Shown: piece by piece, positions 3,860 to 32,717 of the stretch
Layout of the letters: every line of letters begins with the position of its first letter
How positions within the stretch are numbered: position 1 is the stretch's first letter
Source of the DNA: a virus
Taxonomy: Duplodnaviria > Heunggongvirae > Uroviricota > Caudoviricetes
Virus record (IMG/VR): IMGVR_UViG_3300029886_000150
Reading direction: 5' to 3' (one strand)
DNA length: 33,017 bases
Translations under genes and position numbers: made by a program
The notes under the pieces: generated by a model
What the model was told of the DNA's origin: nothing
What the model saw: only the letters and a program-made list of their open reading frames with translations
Database searches by the model: none

Positions 3860-6134
3860 AGCCTCCGGGCGTTTTGTCCCTCCGTCAGCATTTGCCGCAG
3901 GCACCGGTAAGGCGTTTACCGGTGCTTATGCATGGAACGCGCCACGCGAGGCTGTCGGGCGCGAAAGACCCCTTACACGTGACGAGATGCGTCAGGTGCA
4001 AGGTGTTTTATCCACGATTAACCGCCTGCCTTACTTTTTGCGCTCGCTGTTTACTTCACGCTATGACTACATCCGGCGCAATAAAAGCCCGGTGCACGGG
4101 TTTTATTTCCTCACATCCACTTTTCAGCGTCGTTTATGGCCGCGCATTGAGCGCGTGAATCAGCGCCATGAAATGAACACCGACGCGTCGTTACTGTTTC
4201 TGGCAGAGCGTGACCACTATGCGCGCCTGCCGGGGATGAATGACAAGGAGCTGAAAAAGTTTGCCGCCCGTATCTCATCGCAGCTTTTCATGATGTATGA
4301 GGAACTCTGCGATGCATGGGTTGATGCACATGGCGAAAAAGAATCGCTGTTTACGGATGAGGCGCAGACTCACCTGTATGGTCATGTTGCTGGCGCTGCA
4401 CGTGCTTTCAATATTTCCCCGCTCTACTGGAAAAAATACCGTAAAGGACAGATAACCACGAGGCAGGCATATTCTGCCATTGCCCGTCTGTTTAACGATG
4501 AGTGGTGGACTCATCAGCTTAAAGGCCAGCGTATGCGCTGGCATGAGGCGTTACTGATTGCTGTCGGGGAGGTCAATAAAGACCGTTCTCCTTATGCCAG
4601 TAAACATGCCATTCGTGATGTGCGTGCACGCCGCCAGGCAAATCTGGAATTTCTTAAATCGTGTGACCTTGAAAACAGGGAAACCGGCGAGCGCATCGAC
4701 CTTATCAGTAAGGTGATGGGCAGTATTTCTAATCCTGAAATTCGCCGGATGGAGCTGATGAACACCATCGCCGGAATTGAGCGTTATGCCGCCGCAGAGG
4801 GTGATGTGGGGATGTTTATCACGCTGACCGCGCCGTCAAAGTATCACCCGACACGTCAGGTCGGAAAAGGCGAAAGTAAAACCGTCCAGCTAAATCACGG
4901 CTGGAATGATGAGGCATTTAATCCAAAGGATGCGCAGCGTTATCTCTGCCATATCTGGAGCCTGATGCGCACGGCATTCAAGGATAATGATTTACAGGTC
5001 TACGGTTTGCGTGTCGTCGAGCCACACCACGACGGAACGCCGCACTGGCATATGATGCTTTTTTGTAATCCACGCCAGCGTAACCAGATTATTGAAATCA
5101 TGCGTCGCTATGCGCTCAAAGAGGATGGCGACGAAAGAGGAGCCGCGCGAAACCGTTTTCAGGCAAAACACCTTAACCGGGGCGGTGCTGCGGGATATAT
5201 CGCGAAATACATCTCAAAAAACATCGACGGCTATGCACTGGATGGTCAGCTCGATAATGATACCGGTAGGCCGCTGAAAGACACAGCTGCGGCTGTTACC
5301 GCATGGGCGTCAACGTGGCGCATTCCGCAATTTAAAACGGTTGGTCTGCCGACAATGGGGGCTTACCGTGAATTACGCAAATTGCCTCGCGGCGTCAGCA
5401 TTGCTGATGAGTTTGACGAGCGCGTCGAGGCTGCACGCGCCGCCGCAGACAGTGGTGATTTTGCGTTGTATATCAGCGCGCAGGGTGGGGCAAATGTTCC
5501 GCGCGATTGTCAGACTGTCAGAGTCGCCCGTAGCCCGTCGGATGACGTTAACGAGTACGAGGAAGAAGTCGAGAGAGTGGTCGGCATTTACGCACCGCAT
5601 CTCGGCGCGCGTCATATTCATATCACCAGAACCACGGATTGGCGCATTGTGCCGAAAGTTCCGGTCGTTGAGCCTTTGACTTTAAAAAGCGGCATCGCCG
5701 CGCCTCGGAGTCCTGTCAATAACTGTGGAAAGCTCACTGGTGGTGATACTTCGTTACCGGCTCCCACGCCTTCTGAGCACGCCGCAGCAGTGCTTAATCT
5801 GGTTGATGACGGTGTTATCGAATGGAATGAACCGGAGGTCGTGAGGACGCTCAGGGGTGCATTAAAACACGGCCTGAAAACACCAAACCGTCAGCAAAGA
5901 AACGGAAGCCCGTTAAAATCACATGAAATAGCACCGTCGGCCAGGCTGACCCGGTCGGAACGATTGCAAATCACCCGTATCCGCGTTGACCTTGCTCAGA
6001 ATGGAATCTTGCCCCAGCGATGGGAGCTTGAGGCGCTGGCGCGTGGGGCAACCATAAATTATGACGGGAAACAATTCACGTATCTGGCTGCTGATGAGTG
6101 GCCGGGATTCTCAACAGTAATGGAGTGGACATGA
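3849..6134 (+). CDS. A: Rolling-circle replication initiator / nicking endonuclease A (P2 gpA-like), 761 aa
   Basis: ORF track 3807..6134 begins at TTG; first ATG at 3849 gives 761 aa, the P2 gpA length. Sequence resembles the gpA family as recalled; position after B and the early ORFs. Confidence 0.9.
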   Translation: MAVKASGRFVPPSAFAAGTGKAFTGAYAWNAPREAVGRERPLTRDEMRQVQGVLSTINRLPYFLRSLFTSRYDYIRRNKSPVHGFYFLTSTFQRRLWPRIERVNQRHEMNTDASLLFLAERDHYARLPGMNDKELKKFAARISSQLFMMYEELCDAWVDAHGEKESLFTDEAQTHLYGHVAGAARAFNISPLYWKKYRKGQITTRQAYSAIARLFNDEWWTHQLKGQRMRWHEALLIAVGEVNKDRSPYASKHAIRDVRARRQANLEFLKSCDLENRETGERIDLISKVMGSISNPEIRRMELMNTIAGIERYAAAEGDVGMFITLTAPSKYHPTRQVGKGESKTVQLNHGWNDEAFNPKDAQRYLCHIWSLMRTAFKDNDLQVYGLRVVEPHHDGTPHWHMMLFCNPRQRNQIIEIMRRYALKEDGDERGAARNRFQAKHLNRGGAAGYIAKYISKNIDGYALDGQLDNDTGRPLKDTAAAVTAWASTWRIPQFKTVGLPTMGAYRELRKLPRGVSIADEFDERVEAARAAADSGDFALYISAQGGANVPRDCQTVRVARSPSDDVNEYEEEVERVVGIYAPHLGARHIHITRTTDWRIVPKVPVVEPLTLKSGIAAPRSPVNNCGKLTGGDTSLPAPTPSEHAAAVLNLVDDGVIEWNEPEVVRTLRGALKHGLKTPNRQQRNGSPLKSHEIAPSARLTRSERLQITRIRVDLAQNGILPQRWELEALARGATINYDGKQFTYLAADEWPGFSTVMEWT

Positions 6135-6586
6135 TGGCAAAAATTCACGAGGTAAAGCTGCACGCAAAATATTTTGACCTTGTGCTGGAAGGAAAGAAAC
6201 GCGCAGAGTTTCGGAAAAATGACCGTAATTATGAGCGCGGGGACACGTTGATTTTGCATGAATGGGTGCAGGGTGTGTATACGGGGCGAAAGGTTGAAGC
6301 CCGGATAACAGATGTTACTGACCTGTCAGACTGGCTGGCAGATTATGTCTTGCTAAGTATTGAGCTGCTTAATACAGGCGCATATGAGATTGTGAACTGG
6401 AAAGAACTTAGTGAGCGTGGTCTGGTATTCAGAATTAATCATGAAATTATGCATCAGCTCGGCCTTGCTGTTATGTATGAACCAGAGACGGGGATGTCTG
6501 GCGGGGCAATGGTTGCCACGGATGGAGCATGGAACTATTCAGATGAACAGATGGAGCGTGCAAAGCAAAACGGGTGGCTTGGATAA
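6131..6586 (+). CDS. ASCH-like (DUF3850-like) domain protein, about 151 aa, first cargo gene
   Basis: ATG at 6131 overlapping the A stop (ATGA). N-terminal segment HEVKLHAKYFDLVLEGKKRAEFRKNDRNYERGDTLILHEW matches the ASCH/DUF3850 pattern as I recall it. Confidence 0.6.
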   Translation: MMAKIHEVKLHAKYFDLVLEGKKRAEFRKNDRNYERGDTLILHEWVQGVYTGRKVEARITDVTDLSDWLADYVLLSIELLNTGAYEIVNWKELSERGLVFRINHEIMHQLGLAVMYEPETGMSGGAMVATDGAWNYSDEQMERAKQNGWLG

Positions 6587-6792
6587 TGCACAGAATACCA
6601 GGCGAGATACCGCGACATAACACTAAAAATATCAAGCTGATGGCTATTGTTCACCGTCTACAGCAGATTATGGTCAACGAAAATCTGACGCCTGACGAGC
6701 TGGTCGGGTGTGCCGAAATAGTCCGGGATAATTACGGGCGGCTTAACTATATCGGTCAGTCCAGCGTTGCGCCACCACTACGCAGACGATAG
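6586..6792 (+). CDS. Small hypothetical protein, 68 aa
   Basis: ATG 6586 overlaps the upstream stop (TAATG); ORF ends at TAG 6790-6792, followed immediately by the hairpin at 6797-6835. No recognisable motif. Confidence 0.4.
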   Translation: MHRIPGEIPRHNTKNIKLMAIVHRLQQIMVNENLTPDELVGCAEIVRDNYGRLNYIGQSSVAPPLRRR

Positions 6793-17218: not shown

Positions 17219-17648
17219 TGCCGTCACGGTGCTGAAAACCAGTCCCGAGATGCTGCGGATATTCGTGGATAACGGGAGTATTGCCTCCACACTGGCGGCG
17301 TCGTTGTCATTTGAAAAGCGTTACACGCTCAATGTGATTGTGACCGACTTTACCGGTGATTTTGACCTGCTCATCGTGCCGGTGCTGGCGTGGCTGCGGG
17401 AAAATCAGCCCGACATCATGACCACCGACGAAGGCCAGAAAAAGGGCTTCACGTTTTATGCAGACATCAACAATGACAGCAGCTTTGATATCAGCATCAG
17501 CCTGATGCTGACCGAGCGCACGCTGGTCAGTGAGGTGGACGGCGCACTGCATGTGAAGAATATCCCGGAACCCCCGCCGCCGGAGCCGGTCACCCGCCCG
17601 ATGGAGCTGTATATCAATGGCGAACTGGTGAGCAAGTGGGATGAATGA
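17181..17648 (+). CDS. R: Tail completion protein R (P2 gpR-like), 155 aa
   Basis: ORF 17181..17648; 155 aa as in P2 gpR. Confidence 0.85.
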   Translation: MLKPDSLRRALTDAVTVLKTSPEMLRIFVDNGSIASTLAASLSFEKRYTLNVIVTDFTGDFDLLIVPVLAWLRENQPDIMTTDEGQKKGFTFYADINNDSSFDISISLMLTERTLVSEVDGALHVKNIPEPPPPEPVTRPMELYINGELVSKWDE

Positions 17649-18093
17649 GTTTAAGCGTTTTGAAGACCGGCTGACCGGACTGATTGAGTCGCTGTCACCG
17701 TCAGGGCGTCGGCGGCTGAGTGCAGAGCTGGCGAAGCGTCTGCGGCAGAGTCAGCAGCGTCGGGTGATGGCACAGAAAGCCCCGGACGGCACACCCTACG
17801 CGCCACGCCAGCAGCAGAGCGCCAGAAAAAAGACCGGTCGTGTTAAGCGAAAAATGTTTGCGAAACTTATCACCAGTCGTTTTTTGCATATCCGCGCCAG
17901 CCCGGAACAGGCATCAATGGAATTTTACGGCGGGAAGTCGCCGAAAATCGCCAGTGTGCATCAGTTCGGTCTGTCGGAAGAAACCCGGAAAGACGGTAAG
18001 AAAATTGATTATCCGGCGCGTCCTCTGCTCGGCTTTACCGGTGAGGATGTGCAGATGATTGAGGAGATTATCCTGGCTCACCTTGAGCGTTAG
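17641..18093 (+). CDS. S: Tail completion protein S (P2 gpS-like), 150 aa
   Basis: ORF 17641..18093; 150 aa as in P2 gpS; ends with TAG. Confidence 0.85.
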   Translation: MNEFKRFEDRLTGLIESLSPSGRRRLSAELAKRLRQSQQRRVMAQKAPDGTPYAPRQQQSARKKTGRVKRKMFAKLITSRFLHIRASPEQASMEFYGGKSPKIASVHQFGLSEETRKDGKKIDYPARPLLGFTGEDVQMIEEIILAHLER

Positions 18094-18113
18094 TTTTATC
18101 CAGGCAGAGGCTG

Positions 18114-18158
18114 ATGCTCAATTAAACATTGAGCGGCCATGCTGGTCGCTCAATGTTT
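18114..18158. terminator. Convergent-gene hairpin region with two mutually exclusive stem-loops (three copies of GCTCAAT / ATTGAGC)
   Basis: GCTCAAT (18116-18122), AAACATTGAGCG (18124-18135) and CGCTCAATGTTT (18147-18158): a perfect 12-bp inverted repeat plus an alternative 7-bp hairpin, between the 3' ends of S (plus) and the minus-strand moron. Confidence 0.5.
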
Positions 18159-18164
18159 AGAGGT

Positions 18165-18950
18165 TTATGAGTGATTTTTATTTGATGCTTTGTATTCTAA
18201 AACCTTCTTATTGGCGTAAAAGAATTTTGTATATGACAGGAATATAACCAGACCTGAAGTGAAATAGACGAGGGATAGTATTAATAATGCTTTTTTGTGA
18301 CTGTTATTATCTTTAATCTCCTGGCTTAACCATTCGGAGTCCTCCTCGTTTAGCTGTAAGAGCTTATTGCAGGCGATTTCAGGAAGTGTGTCTTTTATAA
18401 ATACGTTTTGCAGTCTCTTGCAATCGGCAAGGCTATAAGTTTTATTAAATTCAACTGCTTTATTTTTGAAGGATAAAAGAACTTTGTCACTATAAACATA
18501 GTACATCATATTTTTATATGGTATGCCTATGGCATCTCTTACTATAGCGGATTGTTTGTTGTGTATATAACATGCGAAGAGAATATAAATAATACTGGCC
18601 AGAATTACAATTGTTGTTTTAATTATGTGTGGTGGTTTTGTTATGTCACCCCAGAAGCGAGTAAGGAAAAAATACGATGTTTTTAGTTTTCCATCAATCA
18701 GCCCCTGCTGTATCATTCTCACATCTTCGATGCCTGATACATTGATTCCGTTAATTATTTTAAATAGTTGAATGTCGCGCCATTTTTTGTCGAGCATTTT
18801 TAACTTTCTGTCTGAATACTCAAGATTGAAATGATGTGCAATAAACCTCATAAGATTACTTTTACCAAAGGTAACAAATGTTAATGCTATTAATAAAAAT
18901 AGATACAAAGAGATAAACCACCACGCATTAGTCACATTATCACTGAACAT
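18165..18950 (-). CDS. AT-rich moron: predicted 3-TM membrane protein, 261 aa, function unknown (position of P2 orf30)
   Basis: ORF 18165..18950 minus; ATG with GGAG ribosome-binding site; hydrophobic segments WWFISLYLFLLIALTFVTF, TTIVILASIIYILFACYI and ALLILSLVYFTSGLVIFLSY; opposite strand to the flanking late genes. Confidence 0.7.
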   Translation of the reverse strand: MFSDNVTNAWWFISLYLFLLIALTFVTFGKSNLMRFIAHHFNLEYSDRKLKMLDKKWRDIQLFKIINGINVSGIEDVRMIQQGLIDGKLKTSYFFLTRFWGDITKPPHIIKTTIVILASIIYILFACYIHNKQSAIVRDAIGIPYKNMMYYVYSDKVLLSFKNKAVEFNKTYSLADCKRLQNVFIKDTLPEIACNKLLQLNEEDSEWLSQEIKDNNSHKKALLILSLVYFTSGLVIFLSYTKFFYANKKVLEYKASNKNHS

Positions 18951-19033
18951 TACGCTCTCCTCGAATGTTGTATGGTCGTTCTACAAATGAATCCAGATAG
19001 CATAACTTTTATATATTGTGCAATCTCACACGC
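18951..19033. promoter_or_regulatory. Divergent promoter region: moron promoter (minus) and expected late promoter P_V (plus)
   Basis: 83-bp gap between divergent start codons; contains an imperfect dyad TGT-N11-ACA (18969-18985) resembling, but not exactly matching, the activator-site pattern I recall for P2 late promoters. Confidence 0.4.
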
Positions 19034-19669
19034 ATGAACACTCTCGCAAATATTCAGGAACTCGCGCGCGCACTGCGCAACATGATTCGCACCGGCATTA
19101 TCGTCGAAACCGACCTTAACGCCGGTCGCTGCCGCGTGCAGACCGGCGGCATGTGCACCGACTGGCTTCAGTGGCTGACCCATCGCGCAGGACGTTCGCG
19201 CACATGGTGGGCACCTTCCGTGGGGGAACAGGTGCTGATTCTGGCCGTGGGTGGTGAACTCGACACGGCGTTCGTTCTGCCGGGGATTTATTCCGGCGAT
19301 AACCCCTCGCCGTCTGTGTCGGCGGATGCCCTGCATATCCGTTTCCCTGACGGGGCGGTGATTGAATATGAACCCGAAACCAGTGCACTCACGGTAAGCG
19401 GAATTAAAACGGCCAGCGTGACGGCTTCTGATTCTGTTACTGCCACGGTGCCGGTGGTCATGGTGAAAGCATCAACCCGCGTCACCCTGGACACCCCGGA
19501 GGTGGTCTGCACCAACAGGCTGATTACCGGCACGCTGGAAGTGCAGAAGGGCGGGACGATGCGCGGCAACATTGAACACACCGGCGGTGAACTCTCATCA
19601 AACGGTAAGGTACTGCATACCCATAAACACCCCGGCGACAGCGGCGGCACAACCGGGAGTCCTCTATGA
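19034..19669 (+). CDS. V: Baseplate spike / assembly protein V (P2 gpV-like), 211 aa
   Basis: ORF track 19016 starts at TTG; ATG 19034 (MNTLANIQELARAL...) gives 211 aa as in P2 gpV. Confidence 0.9.
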   Translation: MNTLANIQELARALRNMIRTGIIVETDLNAGRCRVQTGGMCTDWLQWLTHRAGRSRTWWAPSVGEQVLILAVGGELDTAFVLPGIYSGDNPSPSVSADALHIRFPDGAVIEYEPETSALTVSGIKTASVTASDSVTATVPVVMVKASTRVTLDTPEVVCTNRLITGTLEVQKGGTMRGNIEHTGGELSSNGKVLHTHKHPGDSGGTTGSPL

Positions 19670-20013
19670 CAGCGCGTTATCTCGGAATGAATCGCAGTGA
19701 TGGCCTGACGGTCACTGACCTCGAGCATATCAGCCAGAGTATCGGCGATATCCTGCGCACACCAGTCGGCTCACGGGTGATGCGTCGTGATTACGGCTCG
19801 TTGCTGGCGTCAATGATTGACCAGCCGCAGACCCCGGCGCTTGAGTTGCAGATTAAGGTCGCCTGTTACATGGCGGTGCTGAAATGGGAACCCCGCGTCA
19901 CCCTGTCATCCGTCACCACTGAGCGCAGTTTTGACGGGCGAATGACGGTCACGTTAACCGGCCAGCACAACGACACCGGCCAGCCACTTTCGTTAACCAT
20001 CCCTGTGAGTTGA
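19666..20013 (+). CDS. W: Baseplate wedge protein W (gp25-like), 115 aa
   Basis: ORF 19666..20013; 115 aa as in P2 gpW. Confidence 0.85.
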   Translation: MTARYLGMNRSDGLTVTDLEHISQSIGDILRTPVGSRVMRRDYGSLLASMIDQPQTPALELQIKVACYMAVLKWEPRVTLSSVTTERSFDGRMTVTLTGQHNDTGQPLSLTIPVS

Positions 20014-20017
20014 AACC

Positions 20018-20926
20018 ATGCCGATTATCGACCTGAACCAGCTACCCGCACCGGATGTGGTCGAGGAGCTGGACTTTGAAACCATTCTTGCCGAACGCAA
20101 GGCGACACTGATTTCCCTTTACCCGGAAGACCAGCAGGAGGCGGTCGCCCGTACCCTGACGCTGGAATCCGAGCCTCTCGTCAAACTGCTGGAGGAAAAT
20201 GCGTATCGCGAGCTTATCTGGCGTCAGCGTGTGAATGAGGCTGCACGGGCGGTGATGCTGGCCTGGGCAGCCGGTAATGACCTTGATGTGATTGGTGCCA
20301 ATTACAACACCACGCGCCTGACTATCACCCCGGCAGATGATTCGACTATCCCGCCGACACCGGCAGTGATGGAGTCTGACACCGATTATCGTCTGCGTAT
20401 TCAGCAGGCGTTTGAAGGCTTAAGCGTCGCCGGGTCGGTGGGAGCCTATCAGTATCATGGTCGCAGTGCCGACGGGCGTGTCGCGGATATCTCTGTCACC
20501 AGTCCGTCTCCGGCCTGTGTCACCATCTCTGTGCTGTCACGTGAAAATAACGGTGTGGCATCTGAAGACCTGCTGGCTGTGGTGCGCAACGCCCTGAATG
20601 GCGAGGACGTCAGACCGGTGGCCGACCGTGTGACCGTGCAGTCTGCCGCCATCGTTGAATACCAGATAAATGCCACGCTTTACCTTTACCCTGGCCCCGA
20701 AAGCGAACCCATTCGCGCTGCCGCCGTGAAAAAACTGGAAGCGTACATCACGGCACAGCACCGGCTGGGGCGCGACATCCGTCTGTCTGCCATTTATGCC
20801 GCCTTGCATGTGGAAGGCGTGCAGCGTGTCGAACTGGCTGCACCACTGGCCGACATCGTGCTCAACAGTACGCAGGCGTCTTTCTGCACCGAATACCGCG
20901 TCGTGACCGGAGGCTCGGATGAGTGA
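20018..20926 (+). CDS. J: Baseplate protein J (P2 gpJ-like), 302 aa
   Basis: ORF 20018..20926; 302 aa as in P2 gpJ. Confidence 0.9.
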   Translation: MPIIDLNQLPAPDVVEELDFETILAERKATLISLYPEDQQEAVARTLTLESEPLVKLLEENAYRELIWRQRVNEAARAVMLAWAAGNDLDVIGANYNTTRLTITPADDSTIPPTPAVMESDTDYRLRIQQAFEGLSVAGSVGAYQYHGRSADGRVADISVTSPSPACVTISVLSRENNGVASEDLLAVVRNALNGEDVRPVADRVTVQSAAIVEYQINATLYLYPGPESEPIRAAAVKKLEAYITAQHRLGRDIRLSAIYAALHVEGVQRVELAAPLADIVLNSTQASFCTEYRVVTGGSDE

Positions 20927-24428: not shown

Positions 24429-24461
24429 AATTAAAGGGGGGGGTACCCACCCCCTTTAATT
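24429..24461. terminator. Strong palindromic hairpin AATTAAAGGGGG (loop) CCCCCTTTAATT; candidate bidirectional terminator
   Basis: 12-bp perfect stem (24429-24440 / 24450-24461) with a 9-nt loop, overlapping the stop codon of the minus-strand 92-aa gene and about 190 bp downstream of G. Confidence 0.55.
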
Positions 24462-24738
24462 ACTTGTTCCACTCAGTCAGAATTTGGTTACTAACTTCAT
24501 CTGAGAGATTGTACCAATAAGCTGAGTTATTGGTTGCATCTACAACAATAAGCTTATCATCACTATCCATGACCGCCCTCACAATTTTGGCTGCATCCTC
24601 GACAGAGTAACTACAGTTAACATACCAGTTCGATTCAGTTGTTAAAGCCCAATTTCCTAAAGATTTAATTGCATCATACACAGCCGCATAATCTTTCGTT
24701 TTAATGAGGTCGTAAGTAATAAATAAATTATTAGCCAT
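24460..24738 (-). CDS. Hypothetical cargo protein, 92 aa, function unknown
   Basis: ORF 24460..24738 minus; ATG with GGGAG ribosome-binding site (6-nt spacer); AT-rich; alternating hydrophobic and charged segments suggest a small alpha/beta domain. Confidence 0.6.
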   Translation of the reverse strand: MANNLFITYDLIKTKDYAAVYDAIKSLGNWALTTESNWYVNCSYSVEDAAKIVRAVMDSDDKLIVVDATNNSAYWYNLSDEVSNQILTEWNK

Positions 24739-24761
24739 AAATCATCTCCCAAAGGACAAAG

Positions 24762-24784
24762 AAAAAAGCGCCTAGAAAGGCGCT
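24762..24784 (-). terminator. Rho-independent terminator between the DUF3606-like gene and the 92-aa gene (minus strand)
   Basis: Stem AGCGCCT / AGGCGCT (24767-24773, 24778-24784) with a 4-nt loop, followed on the minus strand by a 6-U tract (plus-strand A-run 24762-24767). Confidence 0.6.
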
Positions 24785-24790
24785 CATATA

Positions 24791-24970
24791 TTAATGGTCT
24801 TTAAGCCATGCCTGTACTTTCTTAGCCGAATGACCTACAGCCTGTACGGCTTGAACAAGTTTGGCCTCGCTAACTCCAAACTTTTCAGCCCAATCACGTC
24901 TCTCGTAATCCTGTTTGATACTTATTAAATCATTGTCAGGGGTACCGATTTTGGTCTTATCATCAGCCAT
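24791..24970 (-). CDS. DUF3606-like small protein, 59 aa
   Basis: ORF track 24791..25009 trimmed to ATG 24968-24970 (MADDKTKIGTPDNDLISIKQDYERRDWAEKFGVSEAKLVQAVQAVGHSAKKVQAWLKDH); the pattern matches the DUF3606 family as I recall it; GAGGA ribosome-binding site. Confidence 0.6.
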   Translation of the reverse strand: MADDKTKIGTPDNDLISIKQDYERRDWAEKFGVSEAKLVQAVQAVGHSAKKVQAWLKDH

Positions 24971-25461
24971 TTTACTGATTCCTCGTGATACAGGCTTATA
25001 CCTGCCCATTAGTTATATGGCTCCCGTGCTGCTTCGTAAACGTTCAATAATCAAACAATTGACACTGATCATAAAACCAGTTAGAGGATTTGACTCTAGC
25101 TTGGATATATGATGATGCCACCCCCTTTATATTGTTGTCGGTAACTCACAGACATTGAACTCATGCTGGTGAGTGAAAGGCTACATAAACGCCCAACATT
25201 TAAACTGCCCTCAGCAGTGTTCGCGGAGCAATATACAGGCTTCGTATTCAATCCTTGCCCTACGAGAAACCCTAGCCGTTGCCTCGTTTTCAAGTGTCAG
25301 GAAGTTCTTTGTCAGACCTCATACAGTCTTGGGCTGGGTGAGGTGCATGGGGGAAGTTGAAGCCTTAACTGTTGAGGTAAATCGAACTATAAGTGTGCAA
25401 TTTTTCAAGCTCGGCGCTATTTTAGTATTGAAAACAATTAGTACGCCCCCAAGGACAACTC

Positions 25462-26028
25462 ATGATCGAATTTATCGCAGAGCATATAAACACAGTAAGT
25501 ACACTTATCTCCGCTTTGGCAGCATTGCTAACAGCAGTTGCTACATTTTTCTTGTGGAGAGTAACAAGGCTATTAGCAGACGAGACAAAAAGGATGGTTG
25601 ACGCATCAGTTCAACCTCATGTCGTTGTGACTCTTGAACCAAATTCTTGGGCTGCTTTTTATTTTGATATCAATATTGCTAATACCGGAAATGCCCCAGC
25701 CTATGATATTGAAGTCGGATTTAATCCCCCACTGGTTAATGCAGAACATAGAAAAAATAAAGGTATACCATTTAGCAAGGTTAGCGTATTGAAAAACGGC
25801 CATTCCCTCAACAGCAGTCTTTGTAAGTATGACCAGATTAAAGATCAAGTTTATTCTGTTAGTATTAGCTGGTCTAAACAGCCGGGCTCAACTGAAAGAG
25901 AGCGGAATGAGTATTCTTATGATATGGCTTCTTTCGAGGGGGTTAGCTACTTAGGTGCAAGGAGTCCAATGACACAGATAGCTGAGCAGATGAAAAAGAT
26001 TAGAGAAGACTGGAGGCCGATTTCCTAG
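25462..26028 (+). CDS. Membrane-anchored cargo protein, 188 aa (one N-terminal TM helix plus soluble domain), function unknown; ends at an in-frame TAG
   Basis: ATG 25462 after AAGGA; hydrophobic segment VSTLISALAALLTAVATFFLW; AT-rich. The frame stays open for 41 further codons after TAG 26026-26028, to TAA 26152-26154. Confidence 0.6.
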   Translation: MIEFIAEHINTVSTLISALAALLTAVATFFLWRVTRLLADETKRMVDASVQPHVVVTLEPNSWAAFYFDINIANTGNAPAYDIEVGFNPPLVNAEHRKNKGIPFSKVSVLKNGHSLNSSLCKYDQIKDQVYSVSISWSKQPGSTERERNEYSYDMASFEGVSYLGARSPMTQIAEQMKKIREDWRPIS

Positions 26029-26289
26029 GGAAGCAAAAAAATTAAAACAGACAACTATAATTCAAGTGACAGAGCCGAGGAACAACGAGCACGTGAAGAG
26101 TGGTATCAGACCACTGCAAAGAAATGGGATAAAGAAAAGCAAAAAGATAACTAATACAATTGACCTGCTCCCCATAAATTAGCATACCACAATCTCAGGT
26201 CCGCTCTTCGCTCAAAACAGGCTGTCAGATTTGACAGAATTTTGGTTACGTAATTTGTCAGTTGGAAACAGAGAGAGTACAAATCAAGG

Positions 26290-28192: not shown

Positions 28193-28468
28193 ATGAACAA
28201 AGAAAACGTCATTACCCTGGATAATCCGGTTAAACGTGGTGAACAGGTTATCGAACAGGTCACGCTGATGAAACCCAATGCCGGGACGCTGCGCGGTGTC
28301 AGTCTGGCTGCGGTCGCAAACTCCGAAGTCGATGCACTGATTAAAGTGCTGCCGCGCATGACGGCACCGATGCTGACCGAGCAGGAGGTCGCCACGCTGG
28401 AACTGCCTGACCTTGTGGCGCTGGCCGGTAAGGTGGTCGGTTTTTTGTCGCCGAACTCGGTGCAGTGA
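28193..28468 (+). CDS. E: Tail assembly chaperone E, 91 aa
   Basis: ORF 28193..28468; 91 aa as in P2 gpE; contains the slippery site near its 3' end. Confidence 0.85.
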   Translation: MNKENVITLDNPVKRGEQVIEQVTLMKPNAGTLRGVSLAAVANSEVDALIKVLPRMTAPMLTEQEVATLELPDLVALAGKVVGFLSPNSVQ

Positions 28469-28620
28469 CGTTTCCGAAAAATCTCTCGGTCGATGACCTG
28501 ATGGCGGATGTGGCAGTGATATTTCACTGGCCGCCATCAGAACTGTATCCCATGAGCCTGACCGAACTCATCACATGGCGCGAAAAGGCGCTCCGGCGAA
28601 GCGGAAACACGAATGAGTAA
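28193..28620 (+). CDS. E: E+E' frameshift product (programmed -1 frameshift at TTTTTTG 28442-28448)
   Basis: After the slip, the -1 frame is open from 28447 to TAA 28618-28620 (about 57 codons), overlapping the T start; same architecture as the P2 E/E' (gpG/GT-like) chaperone pair. Confidence 0.7.
28442..28448 (+). other. Slippery heptamer TTTTTTG for -1 programmed ribosomal frameshifting
   Basis: Heptamer located 6 codons before the E stop, with an open -1 frame downstream. Confidence 0.7.
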
Positions 28621-31060
28621 CAATGTAAAATTACAGGTATTGCTCAGGGCTGTTGACCAGGCATCCCGCCCGTTTAAATCCATCCGCACAGCGAGCAAGT
28701 CGCTGTCGGGGGATATCCGGGAAACACAAAAATCACTGCGCGAGCTGAACGGTCACGCATCCCGTATTGAGGGATTCCGCAAGACCAGTGCACAGCTCGC
28801 CGTGACTGGTCATGCACTTGAAAAGGCTCGGCAGGAAGCAGAAGCCCTTGCCACACAGTTTAAAAACACCGAACGTCCGACCCGTGCTCAGGCGAAAGTG
28901 CTGGAATCCGCAAAGCGTGCGGCGGAGGACTTACAGGCGAAATATAACCGCCTGACGGATTCCGTTAAACGCCAGCAGCGGGAACTGGCCGCTGTGGGAA
29001 TTAATACCCGCAATCTTGCACATGATGAGCAGGGACTGAAAAACCGTATCAGTGAAACCACCGCACAGCTTAACCGTCAGCGCGACGCGCTGGCGCGTGT
29101 CAGTGCGCAACAGGCAAAACTTAACGCAGTCAAACAGCGTTATCAGGCCGGAAAGGAGCTGGCCGGAAATATGGCCTCAGTGGGCGCTGCCGGTGTGGGG
29201 ATTGCGGCGGCGGGAACGATGGCCGGAGTTAAGCTGCTGATGCCCGGTTATGAGTTTGCGCAGAAAAACTCAGAATTGCAGGCCGTGCTCGGAGTGGCAA
29301 AAGACTCCGCCGAAATGACCGCACTACGCAAACAGGCGCGCCAGCTCGGCGACAATACCGCCGCCTCGGCGGATGATGCGGCCGGTGCACAGATAATCAT
29401 CGCGAAAGCGGGTGGGGATGTTGATGCCATTCAGGCAGCAACGCCGGTCACGCTGAATATGGCGCTGGCGAACCGCCGCACGATGGAAGAAAACGCCGCC
29501 CTGCTGATGGGGATGAAATCCGCCTTTCAGCTTTCAAACGATAAGGTCGCTCATATCGGGGATGTTCTCTCCATGACGATGAACAAAACCGCCGCCGATT
29601 TTGACGGCATGAGCGATGCGCTGACCTATGCCGCACCTGTGGCAAAAAATGCCGGTGTCAGCATTGAAGAAACCGCCGCAATGGTCGGGGCGCTGCATGA
29701 TGCAAAAATCACAGGCTCAATGGCGGGGACGGGAAGCCGTGCCGTATTAAGCCGCCTGCAGGCACCGACGGGAAAAGCATGGGATGCACTCAAAGAGCTT
29801 GGAGTGAAAACCTCAGACAGCAAGGGAAACACCCGGCCAATATTTACCATTCTGAAAGAAATGCAGGCCAGTTTTGAGAAAAACCGGCTCGGTACTGCCC
29901 AGCAGGCTGAATACATGAAAACTATTTTCGGGGAGGAGGCCAGCTCAGCCGCCGCCGTGCTGATGACTGCCGCCTCAACCGGAAAGCTGGACAAACTGAC
30001 CGCTGCGTTTAAAGCCTCAGACGGGAAGACCGCCGAGCTGGTAAATATCATGCAGGACAACCTAGGCGGTGACTTTAAAGAGTTTCAGTCCGCTTATGAG
30101 GCAGTGGGGACTGACCTGTTTGACCAGCAGGAAGGCGCACTGCGTAAGCTCACTCAGACGGCCACAAAGTATGTGTTAAAACTCGACGGCTGGATCCAGA
30201 AAAACAAATCACTGGCGTCAACCATCGGCATCATTGTCGGTGGTGCACTGGCACTGACTGGTGTCATCGGTGCCATTGGCCTCGTAGCCTAGCCGGTTAT
30301 CACCGGCATCAATGCCATCATCGCGGCAGCAGGCGCAATGGGGGCAATCTTCACGACGGTTGGCAGTGCTGTTATAACCGCCATCGGGGCGATTAGCTGG
30401 CCGGTTGTGGCCGTGGTGGCCGCCATTGTCGCCGGGGCGTTGCTTATCCGTAAATACTGGGAGCCTGTCAGCGCATTCTTTGGCGGTGTGGTGGAAGGGC
30501 TGAAAGCGGCATTTGCGCCGGTGTGGGAACTGTTCACGCCACTTAAACCGGTGTTTGACTGGCTGGGTGAAAAGTTACAGGCCGCGTGGCAGTGGTTTAA
30601 AAACCTGATTGCCCCGGTCAAAGCCACCCGGGACACCCTGAACCGTTGCCGTGACACGGGCGTCATGTTCGGGCAGGCACTGGCTGACGCGCTGATGCTG
30701 CCGCTTAATGCGTTCAACAAACTGCGCAGTGGTATTGACTGGGTACTGGAAAAACTCGGTGTTATCAACAAAGAGTCAGACACACTTGACCAGACCGCCG
30801 CCAGAACTCAAGCCGCCACGTATGGCAGCGGTGGTTATATTCCGGCGACCAGCTCTTATGCAGGTTATCAGGCTTATCAGCCGGTCACGGCACCGGCTGG
30901 CCGCTCTTATGTAGACCAGAGTAAAAACGAATATCACATCAGCCTGACGGGTGGTACTGCGCCGGGGACACAGCTCGACCGCCAGTTACAGGATGCGCTC
31001 GAAAAATACGAGCGGGATAAACGTGCGCGCGCCCGTGCCAGCATGATGCATGACGGTTAA
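28613..31060 (+). pseudogene. T: Tail tape-measure protein T, full-length frame of 815 codons interrupted by one in-frame TAG at 30290-30292 (codon 560)
   Basis: ORF track splits it into 28613..30292 (559 aa) and 30338..31060 (240 aa) in the same frame; total length equals P2 gpT (815 aa); no frameshift, a single amber codon. Confidence 0.8.
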
Positions 31061-31074
31061 GGAGGTGACGAAAA

Positions 31075-31554
31075 ATGATGCTCGCGTTAGGTATGTTTGT
31101 TTTTATGCGCCAGACGCTGCCACACCAGACCATGCAGCGTGAATCAGATTATCGCTGGCCGTCAAATTCCCGTATCGGTAAACGGGACGCTTTTCAGTTT
31201 CTCGGTGTGGGTGAGGAAAACATCACGCTTGCCGGTGTGCTTTATCCCGAACTGACCGGCGGCAAGCTGACGATGACCACGCTCAGGCTGATGGCAGAGG
31301 AGGGGCGGGCGTGGCCGTTGCTGGATGGCACCGGCATGATTTACGGCATGTATGTCATCAGCAAGGTGAGTGAAACAGGGAGTATTTTCTTTGCAGACGG
31401 CACACCCCGGAAAATTGATTTTACGCTGTCGCTCACCCGCGTTGATGAATCACTGGCCGCGCTTTATGGCGATATCGGTAAACAGGCGGAATCGCTCATC
31501 GGTAAGGCTGGCAGTATGGCGACTAAATTCACGGGTATGACGGGGGCGGGATAA
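31075..31554 (+). CDS. U: Tail protein U, 159 aa
   Basis: ORF 31075..31554; 159 aa as in P2 gpU. Confidence 0.85.
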   Translation: MMLALGMFVFMRQTLPHQTMQRESDYRWPSNSRIGKRDAFQFLGVGEENITLAGVLYPELTGGKLTMTTLRLMAEEGRAWPLLDGTGMIYGMYVISKVSETGSIFFADGTPRKIDFTLSLTRVDESLAALYGDIGKQAESLIGKAGSMATKFTGMTGAG

Positions 31555-32717
31555 TGCTGGATGCACTGACATTTGATGCAGGCAGTACGCTGACGCCGGA
31601 TTACATGCTGATGCTCGACAGCAGGGATATTACCGGCAATATCAGCGACCGTCTGATGAGCATGACCCTGACGGATAACCGGGGCTTTGAGGCTGACCAG
31701 CTTGATATTGAACTGAACGATGCCGACGGGCAGGTCGGACTACCGATTCGTGGCGCTGTCCTGACGGTGTATATCGGCTGGAAAGGTTTTGCCCTGGTAT
31801 GCAAAGGGAAATTTACCGTTGATGAGGTTGAACATCGGGGCGCACCGGATGTGGTCACCATCCGCGCCCGGAGTGCAGATTTTCGCGGGACGCTCAATTC
31901 CCGCCGTGAAGGCTCATGGCATGACACCACGCTCGGTGCGATTGTTGAGGCGATAGCCTCCCGTAACAGGCTGGAAGCCAGTGTCGCTCCGTCACTGGCC
32001 GGAATTAAAATCCCGCACATCGACCAGTCGCAGGAGTCTGATGCGAAATTTCTGACCCGTCTTGCAGAACGCAACGGCGGTGAGGTGTCGGTAAAAATGG
32101 GAAAACTGCTGTTTCTCAAAGCGGGGCAGGGGGTGACGGCCAGCGGTAAAAAAATCCCGCAGGTCACCATCACCCGCAGCGACGGTGACCGCCATCATTT
32201 TGCGATTGCTGACCGTGGAGCCTACACCGGCGTAACGGCAAAGTGGTTACACACCAAAGACCCGAAGCCGCAAAAGCAGAAGGTAAAACTGAAACGCAAA
32301 AAGAAAGAGAAACACCTGCGCGCACTGGAGCACCCGAAAGCGAAACCGGTCACGCAGAAGAAAGCGCCAAAAGTACCGGAAGCGCGCGAAGGTGAATACA
32401 TGGCAGGTGAGGCTGACAATGTTTTTGCCCTGACCACGGTATATGCCACGAAAGCGCAGGCCATGCGCGCCGCTCAGGCGAAGTGGGATAAACTGCAACG
32501 GGGCGTTGCGGAGTTCTCCATCAGCCTGGCTACCGGTCGGGCTGATATTTACACGGAAACACCGGTTAAAGTGTCAGGCTTTAAGCGCGTCATAGACGAG
32601 CAGGACTGGACAATCACTAAGGTGACACATTTTCTGAATAATAGCGGCTTCACGACGTCCTTAGAGCTTGAGGTCAGGCTTTCTGATGTGGAGTACGAAA
32701 CAGAAGATGATGAGTGA
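31554..32717 (+). CDS. D: Tail protein D (baseplate hub / late control), 387 aa
   Basis: ORF 31554..32717; 387 aa as in P2 gpD. Confidence 0.9.
   Translation: MLDALTFDAGSTLTPDYMLMLDSRDITGNISDRLMSMTLTDNRGFEADQLDIELNDADGQVGLPIRGAVLTVYIGWKGFALVCKGKFTVDEVEHRGAPDVVTIRARSADFRGTLNSRREGSWHDTTLGAIVEAIASRNRLEASVAPSLAGIKIPHIDQSQESDAKFLTRLAERNGGEVSVKMGKLLFLKAGQGVTASGKKIPQVTITRSDGDRHHFAIADRGAYTGVTAKWLHTKDPKPQKQKVKLKRKKKEKHLRALEHPKAKPVTQKKAPKVPEAREGEYMAGEADNVFALTTVYATKAQAMRAAQAKWDKLQRGVAEFSISLATGRADIYTETPVKVSGFKRVIDEQDWTITKVTHFLNNSGFTTSLELEVRLSDVEYETEDDE

Follow-up and report, generated by a model that had tools for sequence, protein, structure and literature searches.

Gene T, which encodes the tail tape-measure protein gpT, lies within the FI-FII-E-E'-T-U-D-ogr tail operon of the P2-like prophage carried by the window (the whole stretch of DNA analysed, 33,017 nucleotides), as read from the PGAP table and the Pfam matches of its neighbours (Table 1). 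The frame opens with an ATG at 28613 and closes with a TAA at 31058-31060. Direct re-reading of the window returned the 815 codons, the lone TAG at codon 560 and the absence of any frameshift described in the original prediction, and no further internal stop was present within the frame. At 2448 nt the gene equals T of P2 (OU784549, 12197-14644) and T of Wphi (18034-20481), in agreement with the length previously given for P2 gpT, and it is colinear with both over all 815 codons, as a gpT of the P2/Peduovirus type should be.

Table 1. Features of the tail region and of the second amber site; positions are those of the window.
Feature	Position	Strand	Basis
Second amber, codon 189 of 230-aa cargo ORF (25462-26154), CAG to TAG	26026..26028	+	Window-private
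Tail-chaperone gene E, intact	28193-28468	+	Pfam Phage_TAC_7 / Phage_P2_GpE on E/E' products
Tail-chaperone gene E', intact, overlaps start of T	28465-28620	+	PGAP, Pfam
Gene T, tail tape-measure, 815 codons, now pseudogene	28613..31060	+	Frame reading, PGAP, Pfam
5' ORF of T, predicted 559-aa truncated product	28613..30292	+	ORF list
Former Dcm site, CCTGG in relatives, CCTAG in window	30288..30292	.	Alignment
Amber codon 560 of gene T; ancestral TGG (Trp)	30290..30292	+	Alignment of relatives
Residual 3' ORF of T, 240 aa, from Met576, C-terminal third	30338..31060	+	ORF list
Codon 638 of gene T, TGG (Trp), downstream of stop	30524..30526	+	Comparison with intact T genes
Gene U, downstream tail gene, intact, frame unaffected	31075-31554	+	PGAP, Pfam
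Gene D, baseplate-hub gene, intact, frame unaffected	31554-32717	+	PGAP, Pfam

An interrupted tape-measure gene in an otherwise intact prophage

A 401-base probe placed around the amber site showed 96-98% identity between the T gene of the window and those of P2-group phages. Within gpT, residues 239-440 match Pfam PF10145 PhageMin_Tail (E = 2.4e-45) and a hydrophobic stretch spans about residues 533-616. The uninterrupted frame required for a functional 815-aa gpT is broken by the TAG at codon 560, and the copy of the gene in the E. coli carrier DG342-2 is already labelled by RefSeq/PGAP as a phage tail tape measure protein, pseudogene, with an internal stop. The ORF list divides T into 559 aa and 240 aa, consistent with the earlier claim that the truncated product lacks the C-terminal third. 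The predicted 559-aa product ends ...GAIGLVA, within the hydrophobic stretch, and its exact sequence is recorded on 13 public contigs, while the 3' ORF, itself only predicted, is a hypothetical protein to gene callers. TAG had also been described as a genuine stop elsewhere in this phage, and gene S (17641-18093) does end in TAG, as does a 68-aa ORF at 6586-6792; stop usage over the 47 annotated CDS is TAA 26, TGA 19 and TAG 2. The window contains an otherwise full-length P2-type gene T interrupted by a true nonsense mutation.

In the DG342-2 copy every gene other than T is annotated by PGAP as intact, and T being the only pseudogene marked there bears out the suggestion of a recently inactivated element. 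A TTTTTTG slippery run is present at 28441-28447 in the E/E' region. Unannotated cargo ORFs occupy the three P2 variable positions of the prophage. Beyond domains of unknown function, these ORFs gave no significant Pfam or PADLOC matches; DUF3606 was matched in a 59-aa cargo ORF (24791-24970) and DUF3850/ASCH in the ORF at 6134-6586.

Ancestral codon and inheritance of the TAG allele

Alignment, which had been proposed as a means of identifying the ancestral codon, gave TGG (Trp) in all intact relatives examined. The homologue of codon 560 is TGG in 56/56 intact T genes compared, 54 of which are from IMG/VR, and the T genes of P2, Wphi, Yersinia phage P37 and E. coli 89-3156 also read TGG at this position. 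A single G-to-A change at base 30291 turned the codon into TAG. The same TAG was found in four chicken ST69 isolates from 1990 (DG genomes, Nanopore), the French isolate F374, the draft genome GCA_017598355.1 and the Illumina gut-metagenome run ERR912185 (ENA and Logan assemblies), the ENA contig of which is identical to the window, both private SNPs included, along 4,567 bases. Its presence in at least four independent sources, obtained with different sequencing technologies, indicates a heritable allele.

To search for the lineage, a 47-nt probe able to match TAG-bearing sequence only was run against 5,426 complete E. coli genomes and returned 9 records, every one belonging to the DG clone or to F374. 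In IMG/VR the TAG allele was not found, against at least 80 contigs with TGG. Carrier prophages differ from one another by 2-5 SNPs over 33 kb, with the DG342-2 copy differing from the window at 2 bases. The DG and F374 prophages have identical flanks, and where the flanks of a carrier could be read, in DG342-2 and in F374, they place the insertion at the 5' end of pflA. Typing, available for the four DG isolates, gave ST69, O77g:H18. Because the TAG is confined to one prophage lineage, the distribution of the allele in sequence databases indicates a single, vertically inherited nonsense event, Trp560 to amber (W560am), rather than conserved recoding.

A near-identical intact sibling prophage was sought for dating and none was found, the closest intact T being 99.1% identical. 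EC6563 has the identical pflA-int junction, but its phage is another mosaic, whose T differs at 228 nt. Several further candidates were set aside. Two other 559-aa T products ending ...GLVA, encoded by different T alleles (P0010, P0012), which might have signalled a recurrent hotspot, derive from contigs that end 1-3 bases before the site. A 240-aa ORF on another allele (P0017) begins 18 nt from its contig start, and a C-terminal ORF (P0018) originates from deletion remnants of P2-like prophages; neither was accepted as evidence of an amber codon.

Probable origin of the substitution at a Dcm site

The bottom-strand partner of base 30291 is the inner, 5-methylated C of CCAGG, which places 30291 among the 74 5-methylcytosine (5mC) base pairs in the 16,999 G:C pairs (0.44%) of the window. 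Of the nonsense-capable substitutions in T, 2/247 lie on 5mC. The second amber, in the cargo ORF, was found after the Dcm hypothesis had been formed and is likewise on 5mC: its changed base, 26026, was the inner, methylated C of a CCAGG Dcm motif that has become CTAGG at 26025-26029. This change is present in both the ENA and Logan assemblies of ERR912185, and cargo codon 189 is CAG in DG, F374 and GCA_017598355.1. A cargo product cut to 188 aa in SRR20082874 and SRR33545515 was rejected as a further instance, being due to a contig end with wild-type CCCA. Both ambers are G:C to A:T changes at the inner C:G of CCWGG, the signature of deamination. Across this prophage 17/748 G:C-to-A:T nonsense targets are on 5mC, and both observed nonsense changes are among these 17. 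In total, 2/5 G:C-to-A:T changes are on 5mC, an enrichment over the 0.44% of G:C pairs (P = 1.9e-4). The dcm and vsr genes are annotated as intact in carrier DG342-2.

The pattern resembles the amber hotspots of lacI at CCAGG Dcm sites (Coulondre, Miller, Farabaugh and Gilbert 1978, as reviewed in PMC12606429), where TAG is likewise created by G:C-to-A:T change at the methylated inner C of CCWGG. Q189am of the window (CCAGG to CTAGG) is the identical change, and W560am (CCTGG to CCTAG) is its opposite-strand version. Unlike in lacI, the mutated gene here belongs to a prophage of natural isolates, and the site shows no recurrence across lineages: in the 5,426 genomes and IMG/VR, codon 560 is TAG in one lineage only and in no independent one. 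An ordinary G-to-A replication error could still account for W560am. A single deamination event needs no recurrence at the site, and on the statistical evidence 5mC deamination at the Dcm site is the most likely origin of W560am.

Probable loss of tails and decay of the prophage

Most likely, the bottom-strand 5-methylcytosine of CCTGG/CCAGG was deaminated after lysogenisation, and the resulting T:G mismatch would have been missed by Vsr repair, fixing the site as CCTAG. Translation would then stop at residue 559, inside the hydrophobic segment of gpT, leaving a product short by ~255 residues. The missing portion would include most of the putative membrane-inserting helices, and with them the C-terminal helices that would dock the tape measure on the gpV spike and hub. 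Because the truncated gpT would be devoid of its hydrophobic and spike-docking parts, polymerisation of tube and sheath would be left without a template and no infectious tailed particles would be expected in a non-suppressing host. Given what is known of P2 gpT, both structurally and genetically, the prophage is probably unable to build tails. Laboratory amber mutants of P2 gene T are classical conditional-lethal, tail-defective mutants. They share with the window both the gene and the amber codon, and in a non-suppressing host heads without functional tails are expected. Unlike those mutants, the W560am allele is of natural origin and resides in a prophage; it is fixed in a lineage of wild E. 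coli, where vertical inheritance has carried it for decades.

Since the prophage is inherited vertically, loss of T would be of effectively no consequence for the host, leaving the gene free to decay further. In F374 the dead T later gained IS1203/ISEc62 together with a 61-bp deletion. Downstream of the stop, codon 638 encodes Gly (GGG) or Arg (AGG) in the 54 intact IMG/VR T genes, and the window base at 30524 is found in 0/56 intact T genes. This G638W change is the only amino-acid state besides codon 560 that is private to the lineage; the lineage-private changes in T amount to one missense (G638W) downstream and one synonymous upstream, too few for statistics. Together with the IS insertions and deletion of F374, G638W suggests that the 3' part of T is seemingly free of selection, and the intactness of all other phage genes points to early prophage decay rather than selected domestication. 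Defective or cryptic P2-like remnants of E. coli belong to the same phage family and are likewise decaying in the chromosome. A later stage is seen at three loci (L016, L017 and L019), which retain int, C, the 3' end of T, U, D and ogr, and F374, with IS elements in T, represents a further stage among decaying P2-like prophages. By comparison with these remnants the prophage of the window is at the earliest stage, with 47 genes in place, one structural gene dead by point mutation and one cargo ORF dead.

Taken together, an inherited W560am that arose by Dcm-site deamination, removed the tails and marks neutral, early prophage decay is the reading we favour, with a probability of roughly 0.88. 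An artefact of sequencing or assembly, such as a base miscalled by Nanopore in a methylated CCWGG with TGG as the true codon, would fit the Nanopore-only assemblies of the DG genomes and the location of the changed base exactly within a Dcm motif, where modification-induced Nanopore errors occur. However, the draft GCA_017598355.1, short-read in style, also has TAG, as do two assemblies of Illumina run ERR912185 and the independently produced F374 genome; the accuracy of R10.4.1 SUP within CCWGG is reported as ~99%, and a systematic error should recur among the ~1,880 T copies of the 5,426 genomes, whereas one lineage only shows TAG. With the codon repeated in Nanopore, draft and Illumina datasets, the sequencing error that had been left open is excluded as a live option, and an artefact has a negligible probability. 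Stop codons are known to be recoded in phages, as in the A1 readthrough of Qbeta and in TAG-recoded gut phages with suppressor tRNAs, and the TAG of gene T resembles those cases in interrupting the frame of an essential structural gene that is otherwise intact. A programmed readthrough or reassigned codon conserved in the phage group is nevertheless almost certainly not the explanation, given that every intact relative has TGG at codon 560, TAG is limited to one clone-like lineage and terminates other genes of the same phage, and the phage encodes no suppressor tRNA; the window prophage is not a member of the recoded group. Sporadic readthrough, through a host suppressor tRNA or leaky near-cognate decoding, could keep the phage functional if few gpT were needed. 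A tail contains just 3-6 copies of the tape measure, and the remaining phage genes are all intact. Termination at UAG is comparatively weak when the next base is C, as it is after the codon-560 TAG, such that basal readthrough could yield trace full-length gpT. Against this, no tRNA gene is present in the window, and the recommended check of the host genome for amber-suppressor alleles showed DG342-2 to lack supE (glnV/glnX read directly as wild-type, CUG) and supD (serU wild-type, CGA), with supF (tyrT/tyrV allele) in none of the 5,426 complete E. coli genomes. The check comprised supD and supE in DG342-2 only, and supF; a suppressor form of tyrU, leuX or trpT would favour readthrough. A BLAST search with the supE allele gave 155 positive records, those among the matches listed all being K-12 laboratory derivatives. 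DG and F374 each have one T-like place, and no second T copy was found in either. TAG being the normal terminator of S and the 68-aa ORF, the IS insertions and deletion gained by T in F374 and the non-conservative G638W downstream of the stop all argue further against readthrough, and truncated gpT in large excess would probably be a competitor for the E/E+E' chaperones. Readthrough sufficient to maintain the phage is therefore unlikely.

Adaptive domestication, in which loss of tails was selected and the prophage kept for immunity or cargo, or in which the 559-aa and 240-aa products act as a split tape measure, has some features in its favour: the allele, already present by 1990, has persisted and comes from chicken, human-gut and other samples, cargo ORFs occupy the three variable positions, and an in-frame ATG lies 45 nt past the stop. 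However, with the genes for holin, endolysin and spanin all intact, the T defect gives the host no protection against phage-induced lysis. The change is present in no other P2-like prophage among ~1,600 genomes, so that there is no convergent signal, the window has lost one of the cargo ORFs to a stop codon, F374 carries additional damage in T, and the break proposed for a split protein falls within the hydrophobic segment. Domestication, which had been raised as a possibility in the original prediction, thus finds no support; the pattern is that of neutral decay in a vertically inherited prophage, and an adaptive origin is improbable. There is a similarly slim chance that the tail-less state is non-neutral, with ST69 retaining a non-transmissible prophage, and that Dcm sites are 'fragile codons' which preferentially disarm prophages. 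Were this so, such codons would be predictable, with 17 nonsense targets of this kind in this prophage, and a disarmed P2-like prophage would be stably kept by ST69 for immunity or cargo functions.

On the favoured reading, that of an inherited W560am and neutral decay, the significance is modest: T is a prophage gene that broke recently and in an ordinary way, with no new mechanism. The W560am allele could be used as a lineage marker. The textbook route from 5-methylcytosine deamination to amber codons would have here a clean natural case, found twice in one 33-kb element. Gene content alone suggests a complete prophage, yet this one is very probably dead through a single base.

Amber codon in the tape-measure gene of a complete prophage

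The window holds an entire P2-like (Peduovirus) prophage that extends from the int stop codon to the ogr stop codon and differs by two SNPs and no more from the copy located between pflA and pflB in E. coli DG342-2 (NZ_CM144242.1 4323641–4356657). In the PGAP annotation of that copy int, C, cox, B, A, Q, P, O, N, M, L, X, Y, K, lysABC, R, S, V, W, J, I, H, G, FI, FII, E, E', U, D and ogr are intact, and T, encoding the tail tape-measure protein gpT, is the sole phage gene labelled as a pseudogene with an internal stop. Translation of 28613–31063 produced one continuous tape-measure-like protein with a single internal stop, TAG at codon 560 (W560am), and a mechanical ORF list divides the gene in two. 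T is 2448 nt long, equal to T of P2 and of Wphi. Among the 47 annotated CDS, 26 end in TAA, 19 in TGA and two in TAG, the latter being gene S and a 68-aa ORF. Direct reading and translation therefore bear out every factual statement of the original prediction: an in-frame amber in an otherwise full-length T of P2 length, within a phage that uses TAG as a terminator in gene S. By length, similarity, domain and synteny the gene is P2 gpT, although its frame is interrupted, and it is a pseudogene, as already annotated in RefSeq.

Coordinates of features in and around the prophage
Feature	Position	Detail
att core	L007 3533–3551 and 36765–36783, just beyond the window ends	13 exact bases ACCAATAACTGAC inside a 19-nt imperfect repeat
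68-aa ORF	6586–6792	terminator TAG
Cargo ORFs, tin/old position	7017–8582	
Gene S	17641–18093	terminator TAG
Cargo ORFs, orf30 position	18165–18950, – strand	
Cargo ORFs, Z/fun position	24460–26154	
59-aa cargo ORF	24791–24970	DUF3606
230-aa cargo ORF	25462–26154	membrane-anchored
Q189am (CAG to TAG)	26026–26028	changed base 26026, C to T; codon 189 of the 230-aa ORF
Slippery run TTTTTTG	28441–28447	near end of E
E'	28465–28620	–1 frame relative to E; overlaps T start
5' ORF of T	28613–30292	559 aa
Private state 1 of T	29746	synonymous
W560am (private state 2)	30290–30292	TAG, codon 560
3' ORF of T	30338–31060	240 aa
G638W (private state 3)	30524 (codon 638, 30524–30526)	TGG (Trp); non-conservative; downstream of stop
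T terminator	31058–31060	TAA

The arrangement of E and E' with the slippery run, which corresponds to the known P2 E/E+E' programmed frameshift, appears intact. At the integration site the att core overlaps pflA codons ~2–7; the native pflA ATG after integration lies at attR, adjoining ogr, and PflA as annotated by PGAP has 266 aa, including a 20-residue N-terminal extension of phage origin. The pflA–int junction is identical in 405 of 5,426 complete E. coli genomes. In two 'complete genome' records (NZ_OY754371.1 and NZ_CP095856.1; L008, L108) position 1 coincides with base 1 of the P2 replication gene A, and in many other matching genomes T is ~22–28 kb from the record start; apparently, as we infer, assembly-rotation software mistakes the prophage gene A for the replication-initiator start gene.

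Sequencing evidence and inheritance of the amber allele

P2, Wphi, Yersinia phage P37, E. coli 89-3156 and 54 intact T genes from IMG/VR all have TGG (Trp) at the homologous codon, and comparison with P2 T supplied the ancestral codon. The same TAG is present in DG341-1, DG342-2, DG343-1 and DG351-2, a clone of 1990 chicken isolates from Germany (the DG clone; ST69, O77g:H18, phylogroup D) sequenced by Nanopore R10.4.1 with Medaka, in the French isolate F374, in the draft assembly GCA_017598355.1, and in both the ENA and Logan assemblies of the Illumina run ERR912185. A Nanopore basecalling artefact was considered, since the DG assemblies come from Nanopore reads alone and the codon lies in a methylation motif. 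It is excluded by the short-read-derived assemblies carrying TAG, by the reported R10.4.1 SUP accuracy of about 99% inside CCWGG and by the absence of the change from every other T copy; the sequencing error that the original prediction had left open is accordingly dismissed. The ENA MEGAHIT contig of ERR912185 (human gut; ERZ918297, k127_11372, 48.7 kb) is identical to the window throughout the 4,567 bases compared, a stretch that includes both window-private SNPs; the window very probably derives from this run. The exact 559-aa product is recorded on 13 public contigs.

A P2-type T gene is present in ~1,600 of the 5,426 complete E. coli genomes. Megablast requires an exact 28-mer, and therefore a 47-nt probe limited to the invariant block around codon 560 detects TAG-bearing DNA only; among the 5,426 genomes it matched nine records, each belonging to the DG clone or to F374. 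In IMG/VR the exact 29-nt TAG pattern had no match and the TGG pattern at least 80 loci. The F374 prophage differs from the window by five SNPs plus an IS-containing insert, and the chromosomal flanks common to DG and F374 show one mismatch in 5 kb. The TAG allele was therefore inherited vertically and existed already in 1990; the amber is one event in one lineage. The complete genomes contain no near-identical intact sibling prophage; the nearest intact T is 99.1% identical. EC6563 shares the identical pflA–int junction, yet carries a different mosaic phage, and what looked like independent occurrences of the amber were explained by contig ends or by remnants of deletions.

Consequence for gpT and fate of the prophage

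The PhageMin_Tail domain (Pfam) covers gpT residues 239–440, and the stop falls inside a continuous hydrophobic stretch at ~533–616. Candidate transmembrane helices of gpT have been proposed to form an inner-membrane DNA conduit. The 559-aa product would lack these helices together with the C-terminal spike-binding region, and from the loss of both we infer that tube and sheath would have no template for their assembly. The amber is a case of neither programmed readthrough nor stop-codon reassignment.

Rescue by a suppressor tRNA was assessed in phage and host. The phage has no tRNA genes, and the proposed host check found normal anticodons in DG342-2, with neither supE (both glnV/glnX copies CUG) nor supD (serU CGA); the supF allele of tyrT/tyrV was absent from all complete E. 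coli genomes searched. The supE query recovered K-12 laboratory strains, serving as positive control. DG and F374 each have one T-like locus only, so no co-resident copy could complement T. No route to rescue was found in this search, which covered glnV/glnX, serU and tyrT/tyrV; a tyrU, leuX or trpT suppressor, or trace readthrough of UAG-C, may still provide it.

The supE (glnV CUA) allele occurs in 155 complete E. coli records, and all 60 among the matches listed are K-12 laboratory derivatives or descendants evolved from them. RefSeq lists 'none' as the annotated feature at the matched tRNA, which suggests that the pipeline fails to call suppressor tRNAs. The DG342-2 metT-leuW-gln-metU-gln cluster (L101 25320–26133) has five tRNA-Gln genes, three UUG and two CUG; that of K-12 has four.

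The element had been described as possibly domesticated or recently inactivated, and the second description stands. In F374 the amber-bearing T has lost codons 232–252 (61 bp, window-equivalent 29308–29368) to a 2,006-bp insert of IS1203 and truncated ISEc62 (L008 25461–27456, NZ_OY754371.1). Against 56 intact T genes, T has three lineage-private nucleotide states; G638W, a base found in 0 of the 56 (codon 638 is GGG or AGG in the 54 from IMG/VR), possibly reflects relaxed constraint (n = 1). Nothing points to domestication, with the truncated state under selection: the lysis genes are intact, so loss of T gives the host no protection from lysis, one of the cargo ORFs has been inactivated in the window as well, and no convergent T change was found in other P2-like prophages. 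Disruption of T is not rare, 7 of 63 full-length T genes in an IMG/VR sample having frameshifts or internal stops. The lengths of these seven (L026, L028, L033, L040, L058, L061, L074) are 2446, 2447 or 2427 nt; each is either a further T pseudogene or the product of an indel error in an older assembly, and some may be sequencing errors. The data fit a prophage inherited vertically and at the earliest stage of neutral erosion.

Dcm-site deamination as the probable origin of the amber

Ancestral GCC-TGG includes CCTGG, a Dcm site, in which the base-pairing partner of the mutated G (30291) is the methylated inner C of CCAGG on the bottom strand. Deamination of this 5-methylcytosine (5mC) to thymine would yield exactly CCTAG, matching the Coulondre–Miller mechanism by which classical lacI amber hotspots arise at Dcm sites (PMC12606429). 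The 37 Dcm sites of the prophage give 74 methylated base pairs among 16,999 G:C pairs (0.44%), and only 2 of 247 stop-creating single-base changes in T fall on a methylated base.

In a second amber, Q189am, a Dcm site CCAGG has become CTAGG, the altered base being the methylated C itself. This amber is private to the window (CAG in DG, F374 and GCA_017598355.1) and interrupts a cargo ORF located at the Z/fun variable position of P2, an ORF that has no Pfam or PADLOC match. Of the 748 G:C-to-A:T changes that could create a stop in the prophage, 17 are on 5mC, as are both of the nonsense changes observed. Among the window, DG and F374, two of five G:C-to-A:T differences lie on 5mC (P = 1.9e-4), the second amber coming from this three-way comparison, made after the Dcm hypothesis was formed. 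Both dcm and vsr are intact in DG342-2. No recurrence of the amber at this site was found in other lineages in the databases, and an origin by 5mC deamination is therefore not proven, though statistically well supported.

The cargo ORFs occupy three P2 variable positions and have no significant Pfam or PADLOC match except DUF3606 in the 59-aa ORF; they may represent uncharacterised genes for superinfection exclusion or defence.

By analogy, the window T would be a naturally occurring equivalent of the laboratory amber mutants in P2 T. It is mildly noteworthy that the Dcm signature occurs twice and that the allele has persisted in an ST69 O77g:H18 lineage for three decades or more.
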